Translations under genes and position numbers: made by a program
Shown here: positions 1 through 29,480 of the stretch, piece by piece
Numbering within the stretch: the stretch's first letter is position 1
How the letters are laid out: every line of letters begins with the position of its first letter
DNA from: Nocardioides psychrotolerans
GTDB lineage: Bacteria > Actinomycetota > Actinomycetes > Propionibacteriales > Nocardioidaceae
NCBI RefSeq assembly: GCF_943371775.1
Contig: NZ_CALRWD010000015.1
Span: 5,021-69,020 of the forward strand
Direction: 5' to 3'
Length of the DNA stretch: 64,000 nt
Notes under the pieces: generated by a model
Told to the model about the DNA's origin: nothing
Database searches by the model: none
The model's input: only the letters and a program-made list of their open reading frames with translations

Positions 1-129
1 AGGCGGAATGACGCGCGTCTCGGCGGGATGGCCGCGCCCAATCCGAGCCTTGTGTGGAACGCCGTCGAGTTGGTGCAGCTTGCGTTCGGGGCAGAAATGT
101 CGGAGGGGTTCTCTAGTCTGCTCTTGTGA
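1..129 (+). CDS. Partial 3' end of an unidentified gene entering from the left edge
   Basis: Frame 1 is open from base 1 to TGA at 127-129, with mostly G/C third positions. The stop overlaps the GTG start at 126 (GTGA), suggesting coupling to the next gene. Too short to identify. Confidence 0.3.
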   Translation, partial: RRNDARLGGMAAPNPSLVWNAVELVQLAFGAEMSEGFSSLLL

Positions 130-1073
130 CAGACACCGTGCTTCAGTCGCTGCGTGAGCGGGTCCTTGACGAGACCGAACCGCTCGCTGGGCTACTCCGC
201 AAGTGCCTCATCCTCGGCGCCGATACTGGCTCGGACTCGCTGCGCAATTGGGCTCGCCTGGAGCTCAATGGCTACGGCGACGACGATGACGTGCCGTCAT
301 ACCGACGCTTGCCGAATCCGACGATCACTTACGACTCGATGAGTGGGAACACCTGGATGACAAACGGCACGATGGACGCGCTCCAGCTGCCGGCGGAGGC
401 ACGGGAGCACATGCCCGGTTACCTCGCCTGCAAGCAGCCCATCGAGGAACTCGAAGAGTTGGCAAAGACGAAAGCTGTCTCCATGCGGACGGGGCACCTC
501 TCGTTCTCCGAGATGGTGTGGAACTCGAAGCTTAGTCCTTTTCAGCAAGTCATGAACCTGCGGTACTCGATGACCGGGTCGGTCTTCACAGGCTTGGTGG
601 GGCAAGTGCGGACCAAGCTCGTGGACATCGTTGCTGATCTCACTGCTGGCGTCCCGCTGACAGAACTGCCGCCAACCGCCCGGGTGGACGAGGTCATGCG
701 CGAGAGGGTCGGGCACGTTGGCGACATCTACAACACCAACGTCAACTATCCGACTGGGCCAACGGCGGTCGGCCAGGAAGCTATCGCGAAGAGCGAGGGC
801 ATGACAGTCGCCGAGGTCATCGCGCTTCTTGCTGAGATACAGCGGACGCTTGCATCGGCCCCGGCGGGTACAGCCCGAGACGAGGCGGGCAGCGCCTTGG
901 TCGAACTGCGGGAGGTGGTTGAGCAGGACAAGCCCGACAGGGGCGAGGTCGTCAGGCGCACCGGACGGCTGCGAGCGGCAATCGGCAGGCTCGGAAATGC
1001 GGGCGCCACCGCTGCGACGTCGCGTGCAGCGGAAGCGCTCACCGACATGGCGATGAACGGCCAGTTCTCTTAG
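126..1073 (+). CDS. AbiTii-like abortive-infection domain protein (315 aa)
   Basis: The N-terminus (LQSLRERVLDETEPLAGLLRKCLILGA...LRNWARLELNGYGDDDDVPSYRRL) matches the AbiTii domain pattern as I remember it (LLRK..L....L..W...ELNGY...P.YR). The C-terminal half looks helical/coiled. Confidence 0.6.
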   Translation: MTDTVLQSLRERVLDETEPLAGLLRKCLILGADTGSDSLRNWARLELNGYGDDDDVPSYRRLPNPTITYDSMSGNTWMTNGTMDALQLPAEAREHMPGYLACKQPIEELEELAKTKAVSMRTGHLSFSEMVWNSKLSPFQQVMNLRYSMTGSVFTGLVGQVRTKLVDIVADLTAGVPLTELPPTARVDEVMRERVGHVGDIYNTNVNYPTGPTAVGQEAIAKSEGMTVAEVIALLAEIQRTLASAPAGTARDEAGSALVELREVVEQDKPDRGEVVRRTGRLRAAIGRLGNAGATAATSRAAEALTDMAMNGQFS

Positions 1074-2908: not shown

Positions 2909-4033
2909 TTACGTCTGCCTCCGGGCGGCGCGGTCGCTCAGGTGCACCACGCCGGCGACTGGCTCGTCGTCGTCGAGCTCCTGTTCAGGAACCCAGTGCT
3001 GCAGAAGCTCGACCGGGGTACCTATCAGGTAAGACACTCGCGCGGCGAACTGCGGCCCGTGCGCCCGATGAAGTGACTGTCCAAGCAGCAGCGGCCGCTC
3101 GACTGCGACGGGCACGGGCTCCTGCTCCTTCTTCCAGCCGATCGACGACATCTGGATGTAGAGACTGCGTACGCGATGATCAGACACTAAGCCGAGGCGT
3201 TGGCCGCGGAGGATCAGTGCGCGGACAGATACTCCGTAGTCGGCCTTAACCCGGAGGTAGCCCTGCAGGGTAAGTGTCTCGCTAAGGTGCTGCCGCGCGA
3301 TCGGCTCGGGCACGAGCAGCGCGCCTGCGAAAGCGTGTGCCCTCTTCTCCCGCTGGTCGCGGGTGCTGTTGAGCGGAGTCTTGAGGTCGCCGTCAGCGAT
3401 AATGTGGAAGAGTTCGTGCGCGATCGCCCACCGGAGCGTGTCGCCTGTGTGCTTGCCGACTATGGCGATGAGCGGCCGCTCGGACTCGGCCGGCCGAGAC
3501 AGCCCGGTGTGGTCGCCTGGGTCGTCGCTCCTTGCCGGGTCGAGGTCGATGATCACGCCGATGCCGAGCTTCTCGCAAAGGCGGGTCATGTTCTTGATCG
3601 GCGTGTGGGGTCTGAGTCCGGCCGACCGTCTCACGGCGGCGGCGATCGCCTCGACGTCGTGGTCGTGCGCAGCAGGGTCAGGGAGGCGGGCAGCGTGGTA
3701 GTCCGTAGTAGTAGACGTGTAGCGGAACAGCCGCAGCGCTTCGTTGTAGGTCTCAACGACCTGGGACTCGTCTCGGGCCCGCGCGCTGGCCTTCTTCCAG
3801 AATGTCACCGGCATCGCGTCGACCGGGTTTGACTGCACCCAGAGGAAGCTCATGGGTACCCGGTAGACGGTGCTGGCTCGGTGCGCGAGCTCTGTGGAGA
3901 TGGGGCGCGACCCCGACTTGACTTGCGACAAGTAGGACCCGGAGACCCCCAGGTCGGCAGCCATCTGCGTCTGCGTGACGCCCCGGAGTTTTTGGAGCGC
4001 AGTCAGCCGGTCTGCCTGCGGTGCATCAGTCAT
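2909..4033 (-). CDS. XRE-family HTH fused to an ImmA/IrrE (M78, DUF955) zinc metallopeptidase (374 aa)
   Basis: HTH: LRGVTQTQMAADLGVSGSYLSQVKSG. HExxH: AIAHELFHII, followed by EKRAHAFAGALLVP. ATG 4033 overlaps the upstream gene's stop (ATGACTGA). Confidence 0.85.
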   Translation of the reverse strand: MTDAPQADRLTALQKLRGVTQTQMAADLGVSGSYLSQVKSGSRPISTELAHRASTVYRVPMSFLWVQSNPVDAMPVTFWKKASARARDESQVVETYNEALRLFRYTSTTTDYHAARLPDPAAHDHDVEAIAAAVRRSAGLRPHTPIKNMTRLCEKLGIGVIIDLDPARSDDPGDHTGLSRPAESERPLIAIVGKHTGDTLRWAIAHELFHIIADGDLKTPLNSTRDQREKRAHAFAGALLVPEPIARQHLSETLTLQGYLRVKADYGVSVRALILRGQRLGLVSDHRVRSLYIQMSSIGWKKEQEPVPVAVERPLLLGQSLHRAHGPQFAARVSYLIGTPVELLQHWVPEQELDDDEPVAGVVHLSDRAARRQT

Positions 4034-4691
4034 CGCCGTCCACTGCCTCGTCGATCTCGGCCGCGTAGAGGTCGATGTCCTCGTCGTCGCCGACGAACTC
4101 GCGGTTGTCGAAGATCGTGCCGCCGGGCAGTACGTCGAGGGAGAAGTCGAGGGGCACCTTGCGTCCGTACCGACCCGGCGCGATCGGGCGGACCACCCGG
4201 AGCTTGAAGCCATCTTCGGCGCGCGCGCCCGCGTTGTCCCACAGCATCAACAGCCGGTGGAGCTTCGGTTCTTCGGTGACTATTGCCAGGTCCTCTAACG
4301 GCTGGTCCTGAATGCTCCAAGCCATACCGTCGCCGTTTGTCCAGGCGCGCCGACGCGCGGGGTTGCGACCGGCGGGCGGGGTACCCCCGACGTACGACTT
4401 CCGCTCCTTGAGGAAGCGCACGTCGATATCGGCGTCCTGGTTGGTCAGGCTGAGCTGGCCCATGAGGCGGCTGTCTCCGGTCAGCTCCCATCCGTCCGGA
4501 AGGCCGTTCTCCTTGAACCGCTCGCGGAGGTCGCAGCGGACCATCATTGGCAGGGCGTGGGGATACTCCTTGCGGTCGAGGCCGGCGACTCGCGCGCGGG
4601 ATCGGTCGATCGCCTCGGCGAGCGAGGAGTAAGCGTGCGGGCCCAGGACCCCGATTTCGGCGGTGAGAGCGGTCCGGAGGTGATTGTCCAT
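4026..4691 (-). CDS. Hypothetical 222-aa protein with a strongly acidic C-terminal tail; no family recognised
   Basis: ATG 4691 (MDNHLRTALTAEIG). Codon usage is GC3-rich after this start, while the upstream in-frame extension is AT-rich with rare codons. There is an 8-nt overlap with the HTH-ImmA gene. The tail is DDEDIDLYAAEIDEAVDGDD. Confidence 0.65.
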   Translation of the reverse strand: MDNHLRTALTAEIGVLGPHAYSSLAEAIDRSRARVAGLDRKEYPHALPMMVRCDLRERFKENGLPDGWELTGDSRLMGQLSLTNQDADIDVRFLKERKSYVGGTPPAGRNPARRRAWTNGDGMAWSIQDQPLEDLAIVTEEPKLHRLLMLWDNAGARAEDGFKLRVVRPIAPGRYGRKVPLDFSLDVLPGGTIFDNREFVGDDEDIDLYAAEIDEAVDGDD

Positions 4692-4720
4692 GCTTAAGGT
4701 CCGTTCGGTAGAGCCAAAAT

Positions 4721-4735
4721 GCTTAATCTTTAAGC
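4721..4735 (-). promoter_or_regulatory. Perfect palindrome GCTTAA-N3-TTAAGC in the AT-rich region upstream of the 4691 operon; candidate operator
   Basis: The sequence gcttaatctttaagc lies 30-44 nt upstream of the ATG. A related GCTTAAG sits at 4692-4698. Local GC is far below the genome background. Confidence 0.35.
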
Positions 4736-5078
4736 AGGAATGTAACATGCGACCGTTGGCCACGCGACCTGCTCCACCCGGCGTGTTGCTCTGCTCGAAA
4801 TGCTTTGACTTGCTCAGCGGGCATCCACTGCGCCTCTGTGATCCGAGCGCGCAGATCGGCGTCGTCGTGAAACCGCTAGCGCATGGTCCGAGCGCAACCG
4901 ACCTCGACTGAGAAGGCAGCCCTCCGCCTTGCGCCCAACGCTCGTCGAGCCCACGCTGCCGCGCCATCACCTAGCCGAAGCGGTCCAGATCGCCCAGCGG
5001 CCCACCGTCGCACGGCAGCCGCGCGTCATGTCCTCTTGAACGGTGCATCAATCTGGGCGGAGCTGAGGCGTTCGGTGT

Positions 5079-5993
5079 CTAGACGCCGGCGACGTATGCG
5101 GTCAGGAAGTGGACTCCGTGTCGGTCGAGGTTGCCGCGGGCGCGGTCGTAGTGCTCGGTCGTTCGTGGGTCGGCGTGGCGGGCCAGGATCTGGGCGTCTC
5201 GGAGCGGCACCCCTGCGTCGAGAGCGTTGGTGATGGCGGCGTGCCGCAGAGAGTGCGGACTGATGTGCCGTGGAATGCCGGCAACCTTCGCGATCCGGGC
5301 GACCATCCGGTACGCGTCGCGGCGGTCGATCGGGTTCCCCGAGACGGGTCGCAGGATGAGGGATCCGGTGCTGCGCTGGCTGCGGCAGGCTTCCAAGACG
5401 CGGAGGACGGGCACGGTGATCGGCATGGTGGCGGGCTTGTTGCCCTTACCGACCAGGTGCAGCACTCGGTGGCCTCGGAGGGTCTCGGCGTAGTCCTCGA
5501 TCCGCACGGCTGCGGCTTCGGATGCTCTGAGAGCGTTGATGCCGAGCAGGTAGGCCAACGCTCCGTGGTGAACGGTGAGGGTCTGAGCGACCTGGAGGAA
5601 CCGGATGAGTTCCAGCCGGTCCAGTCCCTGGGTTCGGGACTCGTCGCGGTGGACCTTCGGGAGCCTCGCGTACACGGCTGGGTCCGCAACGATGAGCCCG
5701 TCGATATGCGCGAACCGAAAGAAGCCTCGGACCGCGTGCATCATCGTGACGACGGAAGAGTCCATCAGGCCCGAGTCGCCGAGTTGGCGGATGTAGAGCT
5801 CGATGTGAGCGCGCTGAATCCCCTGCAATGGGTCAAGCCCGTGGTTCTCGCACCAGGCGAACCAGCGTCGCAGCTGGGAGGCGTACAGCCGGTGGGTGTG
5901 TCCGGAGTAGCGGGCGAGATAGGAGACCGCCGCCAGTTGTGCGGGCGACATCTCGGTCGGTTGGAAGGGTAGGAGTGCGGTCGTGCCTGACAT
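5079..5993 (-). CDS. Tyrosine recombinase, XerC/XerD-like phage integrase family (304 aa)
   Basis: C-terminal catalytic region: HSLRHAAITNALDAGVPLRDAQILARHADPRTTEHYD. ATG 5993 has GAGGTG upstream. Confidence 0.85.
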   Translation of the reverse strand: MSGTTALLPFQPTEMSPAQLAAVSYLARYSGHTHRLYASQLRRWFAWCENHGLDPLQGIQRAHIELYIRQLGDSGLMDSSVVTMMHAVRGFFRFAHIDGLIVADPAVYARLPKVHRDESRTQGLDRLELIRFLQVAQTLTVHHGALAYLLGINALRASEAAAVRIEDYAETLRGHRVLHLVGKGNKPATMPITVPVLRVLEACRSQRSTGSLILRPVSGNPIDRRDAYRMVARIAKVAGIPRHISPHSLRHAAITNALDAGVPLRDAQILARHADPRTTEHYDRARGNLDRHGVHFLTAYVAGV

Positions 5994-6401
5994 GGAGACA
6001 CCTCGCGGCGGCTTGATTTGCCCGGCCCCGCCCGCCGTCACCGCGACTCGGAGTCTGGCCTATCGACGCTAGTCCTCCCACCCGACTCTGGGCGTCCGCT
6101 GAGCGGCGGTTTGACGCATCCATTCCGGCTGCACGTTCGCCCAACCCGTTGTTGACGTCAGAAGGTCGGGAGTCGTCTCAGCGGCGACGCAGGGGCGTCA
6201 ATTGGGACAGGGCAACGGCGCCGGTCCCGATTCCCTTCGAGCTCAAGGCTCGGCATGATCCGTTTTGGGTCTGTGGCTCCCGTGGCCAGATCCGGTAACG
6301 CGCCGTACCCGCTAGGCAGCGTGCATGGGACGGAGGGACCTGGGCATTCATGCCCCGTAGCGCGATGACGGAGCCGCGGCTTGGCATAGTGGGGGTGGCC
6401 G

Positions 6402-8123
6402 TTAACGACTACGAGGAACGTAGGCCAGGAACGGCGATGCCCGTCGAGACCAGGTACCCCCCCGGTTGGTGACGGTGCGTGGCCGCGTGAGAAGTAATAG
6501 CCGACTCGGGCGGGTCACCGCAACATAGAATGCCCGCATCTCGGCCTCCCGGTCCTCGGGACTCTTCGCTCGGAAGTGGGGGAACTGCTCATCGTTTAGC
6601 CCAATGACTGCAACAGCACGGTACTCACGGCCCTGAGCCTTATGCACAGTGTGAAGTCGCACGCCGACCTCGTCATCCTCGCCGCGCTGCCAGCGCGATA
6701 CAAACAACTCGAACCGCGGCCAGTCGCGATCGCTAGCGGGCGTCTGATTGCAAAATGCGCGCCAGGCGGCGACGATCTCGTCCTGATCATGGGTCCACGC
6801 GACATCGTCGTCCCTCTGGAACTCGCCCACGAGCCGCACGAATTGGGAGGGGCTCATAGGCATCTCGACTTCACTCAAGAGAGCGTTGTCCGAGCCGGAG
6901 TCGAGGTGGCGTTCCAAGCGCCGCGTCGAGACGGCGGAGTGGGGCCTGTGCGTGGCTTGGAGCCATGCAGTCTGCGCGATGGAGGAACTCAACCAGTCGT
7001 CGGCGTGAGCGGCCACCGAGACCGCTATACCTGCCCGCCCGAAAGCTTCCTCGCATGCTCGTAGACCCCACGCCGTGCGGGCCAGCACGGCGATTTCCCG
7101 GTCTCGCAGCCTAGGGTCCTCCCCGGGGGAAAGAGCGCCAGTGGGAAGCCCGCTGGACAAGAGACGACCGACCCAAGCCACTACGGCCTCAGCTTCGGCT
7201 TGCTCGTCGGGGAGCTCTTCAACCTCGACGCTGCCAGGGGCGGCGTATCGCTGGTCGATTGATTGCGGGTCGCCGAGGGCCCGCGCAACCGCGTCGCCGA
7301 TCAGGACGATTGCCGCAGCAGAGCGGAAGTTCTGTGTGAGCGCAATTGTTCGCGCCCTGAACACCTCGGCGAAGGTCTGCAGGTGCCGCGTGCTGGCTCC
7401 GGCAAAACCGACGATCGACTGTTTGTCATCACCGACGAACACCGCGTTGACGTTGTGAGCGCCAACATCGAGGATCTTGCGGAGCAGGTGGAATTGCGAC
7501 GCGGTTAGGTTCTGCGCCTCGTCGACAACGATATGGCGGTAGAGGCGCCCAATTAGCGAGCCCACCCTTGGCACGTCCACGAGTTCGGACGCCATTACCA
7601 GCATCGCCTCATAGTCGAGCGCGCCAGCATCGGCAAGCGCCTCGCTCCATTCCGTCGAGTGTGGGTGTTCTCGGCGCGTGGCGCGGGCTAAGTCGAGAGA
7701 TTCGAGCACCGCTTTGGTGTCCGGTAGGGCAGGCAGGCCAGCGCCCATGCGCCAAGCGTCGAAGAGGTCAACTCGGTCAGTAAGGTCGGTGACAACCACA
7801 GGGTCCGAAGGTAGCCCCAGCCACGTGCCGTACTGGAGCAACAGACCTTGGGCGAATCCGTGGATCGTGTCAGTCTGAGCGCGTCGCCCCTCATCGCCGA
7901 GTCGCGCGGCAAACCGGTCGTGCAGTTCGCGTGTGGCACGCCGCGTATATGACAAAGCCAGTACCCGGAAGCCGGACTCGGCGCGCAGCAACCGCTCGAG
8001 ACGCTGAGCGACTACCTCGGTCTTGCCGCTCCCCGCGCTGGCGAGCACGCGCAGAAACTGATCGTCAGCTTCAACCGCGGCGAGCTGCTCGTCGCTAAGG
8101 GTCACCTCATGATTCTCCCGCAT
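6402..8123 (-). CDS. gajB: UvrD/PcrA/Rep-like superfamily-1 helicase (GajB-like)
   Basis: Walker A ASAGSGKTEV, motif II VVDEAQNL, and late motif TVHKAQGREYRAVAV. ATG 8123 has GGAGG upstream and overlaps the upstream OLD gene by 17 nt. Confidence 0.8.
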   Translation of the reverse strand: MRENHEVTLSDEQLAAVEADDQFLRVLASAGSGKTEVVAQRLERLLRAESGFRVLALSYTRRATRELHDRFAARLGDEGRRAQTDTIHGFAQGLLLQYGTWLGLPSDPVVVTDLTDRVDLFDAWRMGAGLPALPDTKAVLESLDLARATRREHPHSTEWSEALADAGALDYEAMLVMASELVDVPRVGSLIGRLYRHIVVDEAQNLTASQFHLLRKILDVGAHNVNAVFVGDDKQSIVGFAGASTRHLQTFAEVFRARTIALTQNFRSAAAIVLIGDAVARALGDPQSIDQRYAAPGSVEVEELPDEQAEAEAVVAWVGRLLSSGLPTGALSPGEDPRLRDREIAVLARTAWGLRACEEAFGRAGIAVSVAAHADDWLSSSIAQTAWLQATHRPHSAVSTRRLERHLDSGSDNALLSEVEMPMSPSQFVRLVGEFQRDDDVAWTHDQDEIVAAWRAFCNQTPASDRDWPRFELFVSRWQRGEDDEVGVRLHTVHKAQGREYRAVAVIGLNDEQFPHFRAKSPEDREAEMRAFYVAVTRPSRLLLLTRPRTVTNRGGTWSRRASPFLAYVPRSR

Positions 8124-9855
8124 CCGCGCCTCCATTCTCATTCGCGTCGTCGGCCGCAGGTGCGAACGCGGCAACGAGCTGCTGAAGACCAAGCGGCCAA
8201 TCGACCGGGTCGGGCCAACGTTGAACGAACGCCCGCCCCAACGCGTTGCCAAAGCTCCCCTTCAAATCAGTGAGGCGAGAGAGCGGAGTGCCGGTGCTGG
8301 AAGGGCTGAGCTCGTCGCACTGCTCGACGACCCAGGTTGAGTCATGCGTGACCAGGACGCTCTCGAGGGCACCATCGGCGGCCTCATCGCCTGCAGCCCA
8401 CACCCTCGTGGCGTACGCGGGAAGGTCAGCAGCATCCTTGCGACCTGCGATGTCGCCATCGACGAAGAGGATGCATGGGATGTCGGCGGCTTCCGCGTAC
8501 TTAATGATCGGAGCGGCCTTTGCCATCGACCCGGGATCAACGACGCATATCCCGCCTGCGCGCGGTCCTACGGCGGCCCGAAGGACGTGCGGCAAGAAAC
8601 CACGCTCTGTGGCTCCGTCACCGATCACCAGCGCACTGGCGAACAGCACCTCGCCGAAGGGACGCTCAACCAGTCGGCGAATCTTCTCCCATTCCGACGC
8701 AGCAAGACTGAGTCTGAGCGCCCGCGGTGTGGTGAAGGCGTCATCGGTAGGCGTGAGGTCGCGAAGGACACAAGTTCCATCACGGTCGCGCACCAGCCGG
8801 ATCGAGCTCGGACCGACGGTCGTAACCAGGTGCGAAGAGTGCGTACTTACGACGACCTGACCAGGAATGGACTGCAGGAGGTCGCCAACGTCAAGGCTGG
8901 CCTGCGGGTGCAGGTGGGACTCGGGCTCCTCCACCAAGGTGACCGGAAGAACTGGGAAGTCGCTCCCATCGCGGCCGAGACGGCGGTCGTACAGAACGCT
9001 CTGTACTTGGAGTGATGCAAGACTTTGCGCTCCGGAGCCATGCAGCCGCATCGGCAGCGGGCCGGTGCCGGTGTCGAGTGCGATCTCGATCAAGCGGACC
9101 AACTCTTCGAGCCTCCCGGGTAAGGCGCTGACGTCGGGTTTGCCGATCCCGACGACGGTGGCAGCGAGGTCGTCGAGTCGCTTCCGGATGGCGGCCAAAG
9201 ATGAACTTCCGGCAACGATTCGTCCGCCGAGTTCGGCAAGCTCGGACTCAAGGGCCGAACGCTGGGACTCATCGACCTCTAGGTCTTCGAGGACGCGGCG
9301 CAGTGACGAGCCAGGCCGGGTGGCTTCGTCTGCCAGATTGCGGCCCGTCGGCGTCAGATCAGCCGCAACAGCACGGATGTGGGTGCGACCAAGTTCCGCA
9401 GAACCGGAGGCAGGAACCCACTGGTTGGAGACGACGTCATAGGTCAGGAATCTGCGCTCGGCGCGAGCGCCCCATCCCTCCGCCGACGGGCGGATCGTGG
9501 TGCGCCAGGCGACTCTTTCCCCCAGGGGTGCCAATTGCGGCGCCCCGAACACCTCGATGACCCGTCCGTCGAAGCTATCGCCCGTAGCGGGGGCGAGCAC
9601 AAGATCAATCGAGGGATCCGACATGGGCGAGTCGGACGGCACCATAGTGAAGTCGTCGCGATCGGCTCGGACGTCGCCGCACGCGAGCGCGATTGCCCTA
9701 AGCAGACGCGATTTGCCGGAGTTGTTTCGGCCTACAAGGACAGTGAGGTCCCGATGCAGCGGCAGAACCACGTCGTTGATTCCACGAAAGGACCGCACCT
9801 GGACGACCTCAATGCGTATAAGCGCGTTCGAAGAAGCCGGGGCACCGATGGTCAC
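8107..9855 (-). CDS. gajA: OLD-family ATPase/Toprim endonuclease (class 2 OLD, GajA-like)
   Basis: Walker A GRNNSGKSRLL, Walker B/ABC-like VTLVEEPESHLHP, and a C-terminal Toprim (VIGDGATERGF ... ILFVDGDIAG). 582 aa. GTG start at 9855. Confidence 0.85.
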   Translation of the reverse strand: MTIGAPASSNALIRIEVVQVRSFRGINDVVLPLHRDLTVLVGRNNSGKSRLLRAIALACGDVRADRDDFTMVPSDSPMSDPSIDLVLAPATGDSFDGRVIEVFGAPQLAPLGERVAWRTTIRPSAEGWGARAERRFLTYDVVSNQWVPASGSAELGRTHIRAVAADLTPTGRNLADEATRPGSSLRRVLEDLEVDESQRSALESELAELGGRIVAGSSSLAAIRKRLDDLAATVVGIGKPDVSALPGRLEELVRLIEIALDTGTGPLPMRLHGSGAQSLASLQVQSVLYDRRLGRDGSDFPVLPVTLVEEPESHLHPQASLDVGDLLQSIPGQVVVSTHSSHLVTTVGPSSIRLVRDRDGTCVLRDLTPTDDAFTTPRALRLSLAASEWEKIRRLVERPFGEVLFASALVIGDGATERGFLPHVLRAAVGPRAGGICVVDPGSMAKAAPIIKYAEAADIPCILFVDGDIAGRKDAADLPAYATRVWAAGDEAADGALESVLVTHDSTWVVEQCDELSPSSTGTPLSRLTDLKGSFGNALGRAFVQRWPDPVDWPLGLQQLVAAFAPAADDANENGGADAGES

Positions 9856-11463: not shown

Positions 11464-12657
11464 CTATTGCTCAGAGGCGAGAGGGTTCTCGTGTTCTTGG
11501 TCGGCCCCTTCTCCCGCGTGGCGTCCGGCTGCAAAGGCTGCATCCACAGCTATCCGGGTTCGCTCCGTGCTGCTGGGCATGAGATGGGTGTAGGTGCGCA
11601 AGGTGAAGCCGGGGTCGCTGTGGCCGAGGTACTCGGACACAGCGCGAATCGATTCGCCGGCGTCCAGGAGTACGGAGGCGTACCAGTGGCGTAGGGCGTG
11701 CATGCCATTGTCCCGCGACTGCTCGATGCCCACATGGGCTTGGCCGGGCCTCCAGAGCCGTGTGTTGAAGTAGTTGCGGTTGAGGGCAGAACGCTCGCGC
11801 GTGGTGAGGATGAGCCCTGCGCTCGACTTCTTCTCTGCCTGGGGCGTTCCACACGGGAGCGTGACGCTTCTTCGCGGGTAAGTGGCGAGGTGGCTGCTGA
11901 GCTCCGTTGCGACGCTCTCGGGCAAGGGGACGGTGCGGGTCTTGTCCCCCTTCGGTAGGCCGAAGACGAGGCGGTTGCCTCCGAATACCTTGACCTGCCG
12001 CCTGACCTCGACGACCCCGCGGAGGAAGTCAATGTCCTCGACCGCAAGCCCGAATACCTCACCTTGGCGTAGACCCAGTCCCGAACCCAACGTGACTGAG
12101 ATCCTGTACTGGGGCGGGAGCGCGTCGTGCATGGAGGAGACCCATTCGGACGGCCAGGGCACCACCTTGCGGCGCGACGTGGCGGGCCTTGTCACTGAGC
12201 TGGCTTGGCACGGATTCTTGGCAATCATGTCGTCGTCGACCGCAGCCGAGAAGATGGCAGACACGTTGGAGAAGATCACGCGCCGGTAGGTCTCGGCCAA
12301 CTCCATCGATCGCAGGAGCTTCTGAATCGTCGACGGCTTGATCTGTCGCAGCTCGAGGTGTCCCAGCGTCGGGAACACGTGGAGCCTGAGTCGCAACTCG
12401 GTCGCCTCATACGTCAGCGGGCTGAAGGTCCGACTGTCGAGCCACCCTTCGGCGTAGGACCGAAACGAGATCCTGCCGGCATCGACGTCGAGGTATGTCC
12501 CGCGGAGCTTGTCCGCCTCCACCGTGTTGCGGAACGCGACCGCCTCGGCCTTACGCCTGAAGGTCTTGCGGCGCTGCCGCCCCTCGGGATCTCGATAGTT
12601 CACCACGTAGCGAGGGCGCCCGTCGTGTGCTGGCTTACCGAGACTGATGCTGGCCAT
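11464..12657 (-). CDS. int: Phage-type tyrosine integrase (397 aa)
   Basis: N-terminal arm-binding-like region (YVVNYRDPEGRQRRKTFRRKAEA), a SAM-like core, and catalytic HALRHWYASVLLDAGESIRAVSEYLGHSDPGFTLRTYTHL. Confidence 0.9.
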   Translation of the reverse strand: MASISLGKPAHDGRPRYVVNYRDPEGRQRRKTFRRKAEAVAFRNTVEADKLRGTYLDVDAGRISFRSYAEGWLDSRTFSPLTYEATELRLRLHVFPTLGHLELRQIKPSTIQKLLRSMELAETYRRVIFSNVSAIFSAAVDDDMIAKNPCQASSVTRPATSRRKVVPWPSEWVSSMHDALPPQYRISVTLGSGLGLRQGEVFGLAVEDIDFLRGVVEVRRQVKVFGGNRLVFGLPKGDKTRTVPLPESVATELSSHLATYPRRSVTLPCGTPQAEKKSSAGLILTTRERSALNRNYFNTRLWRPGQAHVGIEQSRDNGMHALRHWYASVLLDAGESIRAVSEYLGHSDPGFTLRTYTHLMPSSTERTRIAVDAAFAAGRHAGEGADQEHENPLASEQ

Positions 12658-13429: not shown

Positions 13430-14854
13430 TTAGATGTCGTAGTACAGCTCGAACTCGTGCGGGTGCGGGCGCATCTGCACGGGGAGGATCTCGTTGGTCC
13501 TCTTGTAGTCGATCCAGGTCTCGATCAGGTCCGGCGTGAAGACGTTGCCGGCCGTCAGGAACTCGTGGTCGGCCTCGAGGGAGTCGAGGACGGCGTTGAG
13601 CGAGGTCGGGACCTGGTTGATGTCGGCCATCTCGTCGGGCGGGAGCTCGTAGATGTCCTTGTCGATCGGGGCGGGCGGCTCGATCTTGTTCTTGATGCCG
13701 TCGAGGCCGGCCAGCAGCAGCGCCGAGAAGGCGAGGTAGGGGTTGGCCGACGGGTCGGGGCAGCGGAACTCGACGCGCTTGGCCTTGGGGTTGGAGCCCG
13801 TGATCGGGATCCGGACGCAGGCCGAGCGGTTGCGCTGGGAGTAGACCAGCGAGATCGGGGCCTCGAAGCCGGGCACCAGGCGGTGGTAGGAGTTGACCGT
13901 CGGGTTGGTGAAGGCCAGCAGCGAGGGGGCGTGCTTGAGCATGCCGCCGATGTAGTAGCGCGCCATGTCGGACAGGCCGCCGTAGCCGGTCTCGTCGTAG
14001 AACAGGGGAGTGCCCTGGTTCCAGATGGACTGGTGCACGTGCATGCCGGAGCCGTTGTCACCGAAGATCGGCTTGGGCATGAATGTCGCCGTCTTGCCGT
14101 TGCGCCACGCGGTGTTCTTGATGATGTACTTGAACTTCATCACGTCGTCGGCGGCCTTGAGCAGCTCGTCAAAGCGGTAGTTGATCTCCGCCTGGCCAGC
14201 AGTGCCGACCTCGTGGTGGGCGCGCTCGACGATCAGGCCGGACTTCTCCAGCTCGATGACCATCTCGTCGCGGAGCTCACCGAAGTGGTCGGTGGGCGCG
14301 ACGGGGAAGTAGCCGCCCTTGTACTTGACCTTGTAGCCGCGGTTGTCGTTCTCGAAGCTGTCACCGGTGTTCCAGGCGCCGGCCGAGGAGTTGATCTCGT
14401 AGTAGCCGGCGTTCTGCTTGGTCTCGAAGCGCACGTTGTCGAAGACGTAGAACTCGGCCTCGGGGGCGAAGTAGGCGGTGTCGCCGATGCCCGTGGTGCC
14501 GAGGTAGGCCATGGCCTTCTTGGCGATGTTGCGCGGGTCGCGGGAGTAGGGCTCGCCGGTGAGCGGGTCGTGGATGAAGAAGTTGACCACGAGCGTCTTG
14601 GCGGCGCGGAACGGGTCGATGAAGGCCGTCGTCGGGTCCGGGAACAGCGACATGTCGGACTCGTGGATGGCCTGGAAGCCGCGGATCGAGGAGCCGTCGA
14701 AGCTCAGGCCGTCCTCGAAGACGGACTGGTCGAACGACGACACCGGGACCGTGAAGTGCTGCATGACGCCGGGCAGGTCGCAGAACCGCACGTCGACCAT
14801 CGCGACGCCCTCGTCCTTGATGTACTTGAGCAGCTCGTCGCTGTTCTGGAACAT
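13430..14854 (-). CDS. glnA: Glutamine synthetase type I
   Basis: [17 protein letters not shown]..., [30 protein letters not shown] 14854 is preceded by AAGGAGGA. Confidence 0.95.
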
Positions 14855-14959
14855 TCGTCCTCCTTGGCTGCGACCCGTGGTGGCAACCGTCAAAGCAAGC
14901 GAGTGGACACACGGCGCGCCGTTGCGCCGATAGTGATGCCCGCAACGTACGAACGGGCC

Positions 14960-26811: not shown

Positions 26812-28317
26812 CTACTTCTCGGCGGACAGCGCGCGGGCGTAGTCGACCAACGTGGTGACGGCCCAGCCGGTGCCGCCGCTGGTGAGGTGACCGCGGGGGC
26901 CGCCGGAGTTGAAGGCGGTGCCGGCGATGTCGAGGTGCGCCCAGGGGAGGCCGTGGGTGAACTCGCGCAGGAACGCACCGGCGAAGAGACCACCGCCCCA
27001 GCGCACCCAGTCGTGCTGGGAGAGATCGGCGATCTTGCTGCCCCTCACCCGCTCGACCATGCCCTCGGGGATCGGCATCGGCCAGTGGTCCTCGCCCGCG
27101 ACCTCCGAGGCGGCGATGACGCCCTGGACGATCTCGTCGGTGCCCATGACGCCCGCGACACGGTCGCCGAGCGCCAGCACCATGTGGCCCGTGAGCGTGG
27201 CGACGTCGAGCAGGACGTCGGGCTCCTGCTCGGCGGCGCGGCCGAGTGCGTCGGCCAGGACGAGACGCCCCTCGGCGTCGGTGTTCTGGATCTCGACGGT
27301 GGTGCCGCCGTACTGCGTGATGACGTCGCCCGGGCGGATCGCGGAGCCGGACACCATGTTCTCCGCCATCGCGGCGAAGGTGCTGACCTTGATCGGCAGG
27401 CCGAGCGCGGCGATGGCGAAGGTCGCCTGGATGACGGCGGCGGCGCCGGACATGTCGCTCTTCATCTCACCCATGCCCTGGGCCGGCTTGATGGTGAGGC
27501 CGCCGGAGTCGAAGGTGATGCCCTTGCCGACCAGCGCGAGGTGGCAGCGGGCGTCCTTGGGGGCGTAGGTGATCTCGACCAGGCGCGGGGGAGCGGCCGA
27601 GGCCGCGCCGACGCCGAGGATGCCGCCGCAGCCGAGCTCGGCGAGGCGCTTCTCGTCGAGCACGGTGACGGTGACCTTCGGGCCGCCGCGGCCCTTGGTC
27701 CACTCCTTGCCCGACGCCACGGCCGCGTCCGCGAAGACCGGGGGCGTCAGGTCGCCGGGAGGCGTGTTGACCCAGTCGCGGGTCTGGGCGACGGCGCGCG
27801 CGACGACCTGCGCCTCCTCGAAGGCGCTGGTCATCTCCTTGCGACGCGGGTTGGGGCACAGGAGCACGACGTCGCCGGGGGCGTCGTCCTTGGTCTCCTT
27901 CTTGTACGTCGTGAACGTGTAGGCGCCGAGCATCGCGCCCTCGGTCAGGGCGCGCACCAGCTCGGGGGAGTCGGCCGGCAGGGCGACCGCGACCGACGCG
28001 GCGTTGGTCACGGCGCGGACGGCGCCGCCGAGGGCACGGCGCACGGAGGCGGGCGTGGCCTCGTCGCCCAGGCCGACCAGGACCAGCAGCGGCGAGGTGA
28101 TCGTGCCGCTCGTGGGGACCTTGACCAGCTCGCCGGCCTTGCCCTTGACGCTGAGGGTCGCGAGCAGCGGGGCCAGCTTGCGGCCGTAGGCCTTGGCCAC
28201 GTCCTCGCCGCCGGGCGCGAGCTGCGGTCCCTTGTCCGTGGACAGGACGCCGACCACCACCGCGTCGGCTCGGGTCTTGGCGGGGCTGGCGCTGCGCAGC
28301 GTGTAGGTCGTGGTCAC
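26812..28317 (-). CDS. pepA: Leucyl aminopeptidase (M17)
   Basis: [11 protein letters not shown] and [12 protein letters not shown] motifs. Confidence 0.95.
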
Positions 28318-28376
28318 CGCGGCAGACTAACCCGCACCCCGCAAGGGTTCGCAGGGGCTGCGGTAGGTTCGCGGCC

Positions 28377-29480
28377 ATGGCCGAGCTCCTGCGATCGCCC
28401 CTCCATGACCGACATGTCGCGCTGGGCGCCAAGTTCGCCGAGTTCGGCGGGTGGTCCATGCCGTTGGAGTACTCCTCCGGCGTCGTCAAGGAGCACACCG
28501 CCGTGCGCACCTCGGTCGGTATCTTCGACGTCAGCCACCTCGGCAAGGCGATGGTCACCGGCCCGGGAGCCGCCGACTACGTCAACCGCACGCTGACCAA
28601 CGACCTGGCCAAGATCGGTCCGGGACAGGCGCAGTACACGCTGTGCTGCGACGACGTCACGGGCGGTGTCGTCGACGACCTGATCGTCTACTACCGCGAC
28701 GACGAGCACGTGCTCCTCGTGCCCAACGCCGCCAACACCGCCGAGGTCGTACGACGGCTCGCGGCGTCGGCGCCCGAGGGCGTGACGGTCGCGGACCACC
28801 ACCGCGACTACGTCGTGCTGGCCGTCCAGGGGACGCACTCCGACGAGGTGCTGAGGGCGGTCGGCCTGCCGGTCGGCCACGACTACATGAGCTTCACCGA
28901 GGCGGAGCACGACGGCAGCGGCGTCGTGGTCTGCCGCACCGGCTACACCGGCGAGCGCGGCTACGAGCTGATCGCGGCCAACGAGGTCGCCGAGTCCCTG
29001 TGGGACGCACTCGTCGCCGCGGGCGCGGCGTACGACATGCTCGCCTGCGGCCTCGGGGCCCGCGACACCCTGCGCACCGAGATGGGCTATCCCCTCCACG
29101 GCCAGGAGATATCCCTCGACGTGACGCCCAACGAGGCCCGCCTCGGCTGGGCGGTCGGGTGGAAGAAGGAGGCCTTCTGGGGGCGCGAGGTGCTGCTCGC
29201 CGAGAAGGCGGCCGGTCCCAAGCGCACCCTGCGCGGCCTGGTCTCCACCGGTCGCGCCATCCCACGCCCGCACATGATGGTCAGCCTCACGCCCGACGTG
29301 ATGCTCGGCGAGATCACCTCGGGGACCTTCTCCCCGACGCTCAAGAAGGGCATCGGCCTCGCGCTGCTGCCCTCCGACATCCACCCGGAGGCGGAGGTGA
29401 GGGTCGACGTCCGCGGACGCCGCGAGATCTTCCAGCTCACCAAGCCCCCCTTCGTCGACACCTCGGTGAGGGAGTCATGA
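28377..29480 (+). CDS. gcvT: Glycine cleavage system aminomethyltransferase T
   Basis: [54 protein letters not shown]. Confidence 0.95.

Follow-up and report, generated by a model that had tools for sequence, protein, structure and literature searches.

Introduction

RosmerTA is a two-gene system that provides defense against phages and for which a mutant lacking the antitoxin gene, rmrA, was not obtainable (Millman et al. 2022). The toxin gene comes first in the operon and is followed by a gene encoding an antitoxin in which an XRE-type helix-turn-helix (HTH) domain is fused to an M78 metallopeptidase domain; such operons are known from defense islands, and the function of the toxin is, as usual for RosmerTA toxins, not known. 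Here, we analyze a gene pair that shares these traits and lies in a 64,000-nucleotide (nt) stretch of the actinobacterium Nocardioides psychrotolerans (assembly GCF_943371775.1, contig NZ_CALRWD010000015.1, positions 5,021 to 69,020 of the forward strand), hereafter the window, to which all coordinates refer unless stated otherwise. On the sequence evidence, this pair, rmrT-rmrA, does not represent a new type of module but belongs, as an actinobacterial member, to the RosmerTA family that has already been catalogued. Actinobacterial pairs, for example that of Kribbella flavida, are already present in the genome tables of Millman et al. (2022). The verified toxin, that of Escherichia coli OLC-716, belongs to the PADLOC model PDLC03935, whereas the window toxin represents a divergent, mostly actinobacterial branch of PDLC03939 that is known from sequence.

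Another RosmerTA pair, RmrT_D5/RmrA_D25 of the Gordonia phage Kita, is a validated toxin-antitoxin (TA) and defense system (Ernits 2023, PNAS). Here too, an HTH-M78 antitoxin is combined with an orphan toxin on an actinobacteriophage, and relatives of the window pair in the Gordonia phages Opie and Malibo occupy the same type of genome position. The Kita toxin contains a C-terminal membrane segment and depolarizes the membrane, whereas the window toxin lacks a hydrophobic segment and is, by prediction, globular and soluble, with an acidic tail. In the RipA/RipB pair of Streptococcus pneumoniae (Spr1630/Spr1629), the toxin gene is also the first one, the antitoxin consists of an XRE HTH and an ImmA-like part, and ripB becomes essential only in the presence of ripA (PMC12795458). 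RipA, which acts on the DnaN clamp, is likewise a soluble cytoplasmic toxin, a likeness by description and not by sequence comparison. Unlike the defense systems, RipAB has a documented role in competence induction, which is ClpX-dependent, and the window antitoxin scores 60.6 bits against the NCBIfam equivalog model of spr1629 (NF052239; cut-off 335), so that it does not belong to the same subfamily as RipB.

Further parallels are provided by pairs of repressors and proteases, namely ImmR/ImmA of ICEBs1, DdrO/IrrE of Deinococcus, and CapH/CapP of the cyclic oligonucleotide-based antiphage signaling systems (CBASS). These pairs share with the window locus the HTH and M78 folds, the conserved HExxH...E residues, and an upstream palindrome, which in the window is a candidate operator. 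However, each of them consists of two proteins, a repressor and a protease that cleaves it, and serves to induce the transcription of other genes, whereas in the window, the two domains are fused within 374 amino acids (aa), without the separate genes of these pairs, and the fusion is strictly paired with a small effector gene.

Results and Discussion

Assignment of the gene pair to RosmerTA

The pair is assigned to RosmerTA because both proteins match RosmerTA models of PADLOC-DB, with matches graded by E-value and bits rather than by the PADLOC per-model thresholds. The 221-aa product of the first gene matches the RmrT model PDLC03939 (E-value 2.4e-19, 67.8 bits; residues 18-215 on positions 18-201 of the 212 in the profile), and the 374-aa product of the second gene matches the RmrA model PDLC03953 over nearly its entire length (E-value 1.6e-74; residues 1-366 on positions 1-371 of 373). 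Thirteen other RmrA models yield E-values of about 1e-34 or weaker for the latter protein, capP gives 1e-10, and capH gives 1e-3. Thus, the locus combines an M78 Zn-peptidase antitoxin that carries an XRE HTH and matches an RmrA profile with a partner that matches an RmrT profile, in two adjacent, co-oriented genes that form a single operon, as indicated by their 8-nt same-strand overlap and by all homologous loci that were read. Membership in RosmerTA depends on profile matches and architecture rather than on a tested relative; standard PADLOC or DefenseFinder annotation would name the pair RosmerTA.

The main features of the locus are as follows.

4026..4691, minus strand: rmrT-like toxin/effector gene (open reading frame (ORF), translation, PADLOC RmrT PDLC03939, family, AlphaFold2 (AF2) model)
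4029..4133, minus strand: acidic C-terminal tail of the toxin, residues 187-221 (composition, isoelectric point, column counts, model confidence)
2909..4033, minus strand: rmrA antitoxin/regulator gene, 374 aa (PADLOC RmrA PDLC03953, Pfam, PHROG 2439, AF2, Foldseek)
3842..4015, minus strand: XRE-type HTH domain of RmrA, residues 7-64 (Pfam HTH_31/HTH_3, structural matches)
3212..3577, minus strand: M78 metallopeptidase domain of RmrA, residues 153-274 (Pfam Peptidase_M78, structural matches)
3404..3418, minus strand: HELFH zinc-binding/catalytic motif of RmrA, H206-H210 (sequence read, conservation in 66 homologues)
4026..4033, minus strand: overlap of the rmrT stop and the rmrA start, ATGACTGA (sequence read; overlap or near-abutment also in homologous loci)
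4720..4736, no strand assigned: candidate operator O1, TGCTTAA-N3-TTAAGCA (window search, homologous loci)
4691..4697, minus strand: candidate operator half-site O2, TTAAGCA, overlapping the A of the rmrT ATG (window count, homologous loci)
4741..4746, minus strand: conserved GTTACA (TTnCA-type) hexamer, 4 nt upstream of O1 (homologous loci)

Both genes lie on the minus strand. The rmrT gene runs from an ATG at 4691 to a TGA at 4028-4026, and rmrA from an ATG at 4033 to a stop at 2909-2911; the 8 nt that they share (4033-4026) can be read directly in the sequence. This overlap of the rmrA start with the rmrT stop suggests translational coupling. The two frames are not chance ORFs, given the 58 homologues of the toxin detected by a profile search, the 177 family clusters at 50% identity (E<=1e-3), and the start methionine, which is kept in 91% of the 153 aligned toxin-family members.

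An earlier note on this DNA, made from the letters alone, had called the first protein unclassifiable and the pair a candidate novel module. The search of PADLOC that it recommended shows otherwise, and bears out its broader proposal of a two-gene module of the TA or defense type, consisting of an effector and an HTH-M78 regulator, for which RosmerTA had been named as a comparator. The first ORF and the 8-nt overlap had been identified correctly, with a length of 222 aa that counts the stop codon, and the description of the partner as a 374-aa protein combining an XRE HTH with an M78 domain and its HELFH core agrees with the translation and the Pfam matches. The profile search recommended for the first protein produced a PADLOC match and no Pfam family: comparison of the toxin with Pfam, NCBIfam, and PHROG gave nothing above noise, a Pfam scan of 56 toxin-family members revealed no recurrent family (a single member matched DUF1287, at E 0.023), and a profile search of PDB sequences with the toxin family returned no match.

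The toxin family and its pairing with RmrA

A single-sequence search retrieved 13 relatives of the toxin and the profile search 58; the 177 clusters mentioned above were obtained when 1.84 billion representatives were scanned exhaustively with HMMER. Nearly all members are single-domain proteins of 200-230 aa, and most are actinobacterial, the named sources being Kribbella, Rhodococcus, Kocuria, Mycobacteroides abscessus, Pengzhenrongella, Dermatophilaceae, Nocardioides, and Micropruina; the closest genome match, at 87% identity, comes from a Nocardioides metagenome-assembled genome. A distant relative, P0058, which is 30% identical to the window toxin, matches PDLC03939 at 3e-80 and is followed by an HTH-M78 gene; P0031, P0056, and gp34 of phage Opie match the same RmrT model.

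Wherever downstream sequence is available, in about 12 independent contexts, an RmrA/HTH-M78 gene is located directly 3' of the toxin gene and usually overlaps it, in line with the conserved pairing that the earlier note had proposed to look for. The neighborhoods were examined by individual locus look-ups, and a contig scan with a 12-sequence alignment contributed 4 loci. Among cellular genomes, the pair is present in the window, Kribbella (loci L001 and L002), Nocardioides Root122 (L004), Micropruina (L005 and L006), Rhodococcus (L011), Micrococcus luteus (L013), and Jonesiaceae (L014); metagenomic and viral occurrences comprise three metagenome contexts (L007-9, L010, and L016), the Gordonia phages Opie and Malibo (L012), and two IMG/VR contigs (L017 and L018). 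In the reverse direction, this toxin is encoded upstream of the closest RmrA homologues among those looked up, but not upstream of L015, a more distant protein with the M78 part only.

In the two Gordonia phages, the genes gp34/gp33 of Opie (MN813694.1, record positions 27429-29187) and gp35/gp34 of Malibo (MZ681514.1, 26988-28719) constitute an unannotated RosmerTA pair, deposited under the names 'hypothetical protein' or 'helix-turn-helix DNA binding protein', with a toxin 36% and an antitoxin 51% identical to the window proteins. In both phages, the pair adjoins a RelE/RelB pair and the integrase; in Opie, it is located between the tail genes and the integrase. In actinobacteriophages, the interval between the tail genes and the integrase is the usual place of defense genes expressed from the prophage.

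The antitoxin

Pfam identifies HTH_31 (residues 7-60), HTH_3 (residues 15-64), and Peptidase_M78 (residues 153-274, E 9.8e-12) in RmrA, which also matches PHROG 2439 and has a helical C-terminal region. The AlphaFold model is of high confidence, with a predicted local distance difference test score (pLDDT) of 93.9 and a predicted template modeling score (pTM) of 0.90. In Foldseek searches, the closest structures to the M78 part, all at probability 1.0, were CapP (7t5t), IrrE (3dti), and PprI bound to single-stranded DNA (8sln), and those closest to the HTH part were C-proteins, DdrO, CapH, and SinR; the IrrE match spans only about 160-170 residues, those of the M78 part. In the predicted model, RmrA thus looks like a fusion of both halves of the repressor/protease pairs. 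Across 66 RmrA homologues, H206, H210, and E229 never vary and E207 is kept in 90% or more, a pattern from which we conclude that the peptidase is under selection as an enzyme.

The toxin

The AF2 model of the toxin (pLDDT 83.2, pTM 0.75) is a globular alpha/beta protein. Its N-terminal part consists of two long helices (residues 3-34 and 46-62), a three-stranded meander (68-95), and a short helix (111-117), and is followed by a poorly modeled insert (approximately 120-143), three further strands (145-186), and a low-confidence acidic tail. The predicted core therefore comprises about 186 residues, in which the two N-terminal helices accompany a six-stranded sheet. As stated in the earlier note, there is neither a membrane segment nor a P-loop, the maximum Kyte-Doolittle value over a 19-residue window being 0.73. 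The anchor segment of the Kita D5 type is thus not found in this hydropathy profile or in the globular model, and the absence of a membrane segment excludes the membrane-depolarizing mode for the window toxin. Given that this toxin is predicted to be soluble and lacks the hydrophobic segment of its Kita counterpart, a different mode of toxicity is expected.

Conservation among 153 aligned family members is concentrated in basic and aromatic residues: W68 is kept in 149 of these sequences, R92 in 148, R52 in 147, R113 in 145, W151 in 141, R165 and D182 in 140 each, R56 and K95 in 127 each, and E96 in 120. The loop P105-x-A107-G108 is also conserved. The soluble protein thus has a basic, Trp-studded conserved surface, which suggests that the toxin acts on a polyanionic ligand, such as a nucleic acid or nucleotide, or on a protein target.

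The tail contrasts sharply with the core. Residues 187-221 include 13 Asp/Glu and a single Lys/Arg, the isoelectric point is 4.05 compared to 7.9 for residues 1-186, and the pLDDT falls to 46-62 across residues 191-221; the acidity of the tail had been recognized previously, with a count of 11 Asp/Glu in the last 25 residues where we find 12. The feature is shared by the family, in which Asp/Glu account on average for 32% of the last 30 residues, and F199, D207, F/Y209, and I213 are conserved positions within it. One might speculate that the conserved acidic tail masks the basic surface or serves as a handle for RmrA.

Because the Rosmer toxin RipA is reported to target DnaN, we also considered a beta-clamp-binding motif in the conserved M-G-Q-L-x-L stretch of the toxin (GQLSL, residues 78-82, 4446-4460), which is similar to the beginning of QL[SD]LF, and rejected it as evidence. 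The stretch is part of the confidently folded core, its fifth and sixth positions (T/E/V and N/A/H) do not fit QL[SD]LF or QLxLxL, the terminal aromatic or hydrophobic residue is lacking, and family members vary here as expected of a buried strand. The conservation of this stretch is probably structural.

Candidate operators upstream of rmrT

A perfect inverted repeat, TGCTTAA-AGA-TTAAGCA (4720-4736), precedes the rmrT start by 29-45 nt. It occurs nowhere else in the window, and 0 occurrences are expected by chance. Its half-site, TTAAGCA, is found three times in the 64-kilobase (kb) window, compared to 0.26 expected, and all three copies are in this region, the third one (4691-4697) overlapping the rmrT ATG. 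In the homologous loci that were compared, an AT-rich palindrome with a lineage-specific sequence precedes the toxin start by 20-60 nt in each case, except for L016, where none is evident. The palindromes are listed below.

Window: TGCTTAA-N3-TTAAGCA
L003: as in the window, with one change
L004: TGCTCAATAATTTAGCA
L005: AGTAATATCATTACT
L007: TGCTCATAATATAAGCA
L010: TGTAGTAATATTATTACA
L011, L017, and L018: GTCATAATATGAC

In the last three loci, the palindrome contains the -10 element (TAATAT or TATTAT) of a near-consensus promoter whose -35 element, at a spacing of 17 nt, is TTGCAA, TTGCGA, or TGGACA. The palindrome recurs, in full or as a half-site, at the toxin start codon in the window and in L003, L004, L011, L017, and L018; in the last three, it is a second copy that overlaps the start codon. 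Since the position of the palindrome is fixed but its sequence is lineage-specific, as is the case for an operator of a cognate HTH, we infer, on good grounds, that RmrA represses its own synthesis through its HTH domain; the sequence pattern suggests that it would do so through the candidate operators O1 and O2.

A TTnCA-type hexamer (GTTACA, GTTGCA, GTTTCA, or TTTCAT) is located 3-6 nt upstream of the palindrome in the window and in L001, L003-L005, L007, L010, L011, L017, and L018. This hexamer might resemble a -35 element in function or belong to the operator; it is not simply a -35 element because, in L011, L017, and L018, it lies inside the promoter spacer.

Genomic context

The pair is embedded in a segment of 64-66% GC that extends from position 1 to approximately 16-17 kb, whereas the genome beyond about 18 kb has a GC content of 70-73%. 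In addition to the RosmerTA pair, this segment encodes an AbiTii protein (126-1073), the products of two ORFs, a tyrosine recombinase (5079-6041) directly upstream of the pair and on the same strand, GajB and GajA (6402-9855), and an integrase of the tyrosine recombinase family (11464-12657), beyond which is the gene for glutamine synthetase (13430-14893). The segment is a horizontally acquired defense island on an integrative element. Of the island components listed in the earlier note, AbiTii, Gabija, and the two recombinases are all present; the "CoiA-like" gene (ORF 1347-2096) has no Pfam or PADLOC match at E<=1e-3. Neither a tRNA gene nor an attachment site was found in the 1-20 kb portion of the window, and the left end of the island lies outside the window.

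Several of the neighboring genes merit description in their own right. The Gabija system (6402-9855, minus strand) is complete, with GajA (8107-9855; PADLOC 7e-65; AAA_15 and OLD-like TOPRIM) followed by GajB (6402-8252; PADLOC 3.5e-84; UvrD helicase); because the two ORFs, as listed, share about 146 nt, the true GajB start is probably located downstream of the first TTG. The 315-aa protein encoded at 126-1073 (plus strand) contains an N-terminal AbiTii domain (residues 6-177; Pfam 2.3e-31, PADLOC 1e-33), beyond which extends a C-terminal half of about 140 aa without an assigned domain. Between this gene and the RosmerTA pair are two plus-strand ORFs, 1347-2096 and 2109-2615, which both lack a Pfam or PADLOC match at the above threshold and the second of which encodes CxxC-type cysteines (CPHCNATC). 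These two ORFs could be another defense pair.

Defense-related or mobile neighbors of homologous pairs were observed in a few loci, namely L007, L010, L013, and L014, the latter three with transposases, as well as Opie, with RelBE and the integrase. In L007 (7871-11257 in that locus), the neighbors flanking the pair are a Mutator-family transposase and a Type ISP restriction-modification enzyme of 1128 aa (N6_Mtase and Type_ISP_C), and a large DUF8437 helicase is encoded upstream; this locus is another small defense island.

Proposed mechanism and alternative explanations

We consider it likely that the window pair is a RosmerTA-class, type II-like toxin-antitoxin/abortive-infection module on a horizontally acquired defense island. 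Under the proposed mechanism, the rmrT-like gene would encode a soluble cytoplasmic effector with a basic, conserved core rich in Arg, Lys, and Trp and an acidic, disordered C-terminal tail. The translationally coupled rmrA would provide the fused XRE-HTH and M78 Zn-peptidase that holds the effector inactive, and its HTH would repress the operon by binding O1, in the promoter region, and O2, at the toxin start codon. Both neutralization and repression would then be relieved when a cue derived from phage or stress acts on the peptidase/sensor part of RmrA, and the released effector would arrest the infected cell. The target of the effector would most likely be a polyanionic molecule (nucleic acid or nucleotide) or a protein of replication or expression, and the effector would not be a membrane toxin. 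The toxicity of RmrT, its neutralization by RmrA, autorepression, the trigger, and the defense phenotype are all extrapolated from the tested RosmerTA systems.

Several points weigh against this interpretation. For the RmrT family described here, toxicity and defense are suggested by analogy, and in RosmerTA systems in general, the M78 domain might cleave the antitoxin itself, the toxin, or something else. The window toxin belongs to a divergent branch of PDLC03939, with 68 bits compared to 267 bits for the seed-like P0058, and that model seems, judging by these scores, to be centered on sequences distant from this branch. The verified toxin of E. coli OLC-716 is covered by the other model, and an hhalign comparison of it with the toxin family gave a probability of 0.3%, that is, no detectable similarity. 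A Foldseek search of the toxin model against PDB and BFVD returned no match at E<0.1 (best E 0.17, TM-score 0.32). In Kribbella and Rhodococcus, the neighbors of the pair are metabolic genes, and the loci are not defense islands. Finally, a simple sigma-70 consensus scan upstream of rmrT in the window detected no promoter, so that, of the AT-rich promoter with a perfect palindrome that had been claimed for the operon, the palindrome stands and the promoter is plausible only.

The alternatives differ in the role that they assign to the pair. It might be a plain addiction or stabilization module, or a stress-response TA module without an antiphage role, that maintains the island or turns stress into growth arrest. 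The documented role of RipAB, a Rosmer-family TA system, is in replication stress and competence signaling rather than in phage defense (PMC12795458), the window pair is on a mobile island flanked by integrases, and several homologous loci are outside defense islands. However, the window locus is situated between AbiTii and Gabija, homologues occupy the prophage 'moron' region of Gordonia phages and a position beside the Type ISP restriction enzyme, and phage defense has been measured for two other RosmerTA systems; hence we regard an exclusively non-defensive role as unlikely, bearing in mind that the two roles are not mutually exclusive. Alternatively, the HTH-M78 protein might be mainly a fused switch of the ImmR/ImmA type that controls the adjacent tyrosine recombinase and thereby island excision, with the 221-aa protein being an accessory sensor or anti-repressor and not a toxin. 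The recombinase gene (5079-6041) directly upstream on the same strand, the integrase near the Opie pair, the resemblance of the M78 and HTH parts to the regulators IrrE/CapP and DdrO/CapH, and the palindromic candidate operators, which point to transcriptional control, are all compatible with such a switch. Yet, the toxin and antitoxin genes are kept as an autonomous unit at loci without a nearby recombinase (Kribbella L001 and Rhodococcus L011), the candidate operators are in front of the pair and not of the recombinase, the RmrA models beat capP by about 60 orders of magnitude, and the small partner is toxic in the tested RosmerTA and RipAB systems, which makes this explanation quite improbable.

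With regard to the chemistry of the toxin, the hint in the earlier note was a PD...ExK-like spacing, which would make the 221-aa protein a divergent PD-(D/E)xK nuclease that degrades DNA once released. The predicted core does display the alpha-beta-beta-beta-alpha-beta order of elements, and the non-significant Foldseek matches include the Shedu nuclease domain, the influenza PA endonuclease, NucC, DUF2800, and phage PD-(D/E)xK proteins, but all these matches have E>=0.96 and TM-scores of at most 0.28. The proposed motif residues are poorly kept (D66 in 25, D90 in 12, and K98 in 19 of the 153 sequences) and the hint is rejected on these counts; the residues that are conserved (R52, R56, R92, K95, R113, R165, W68, W151, and D182) do not include an acidic metal-binding pair in strands 2 and 3, and none of the 56 toxin-family members scanned matched a Pfam nuclease family. 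As the 221-aa protein displays neither the conserved acid in strand 2 and (D/E)xK in strand 3 nor a significant match, we would be greatly surprised by a nuclease of this class. A further proposal is that the toxin family may represent a structurally new soluble fold with a new mode of action, in which an Arg/Lys-rich site, with R52, R56, R92, K95, R113, R165, and D182 as its candidate residues, serves to bind or modify a nucleotide, a nucleic acid, or a protein of replication, and the tail is an intramolecular mimic or a handle or cleavage site for the M78 domain of RmrA. In its entirety, this proposal is tentative and rather unlikely to be correct; if the tail is indeed a control site for the M78 protease, RmrA would act as an antitoxin by proteolysis and not simply by sequestration.

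Implications

Placing the window pair within RosmerTA removes a false "novel system" lead and, at the same time, documents a coherent subfamily of RmrT, mostly from actinobacteria and actinophages, that is annotated as 'hypothetical protein' in Kribbella, Rhodococcus, Kocuria, and the Gordonia phages Opie and Malibo and is characterized by a confident model without a structural match in PDB or BFVD and by a two-operator layout. RosmerTA toxins are largely uncharacterized, the membrane-depolarizing and DnaN-targeting ones being the only ones with a known target. For this reason, a soluble, Arg-rich, acid-tailed toxin for which tractable phage-host pairs exist (Gordonia terrae lysogens) would be a reasonable model, and one that could help identify the signal and the substrate of the M78 peptidase of RmrA.

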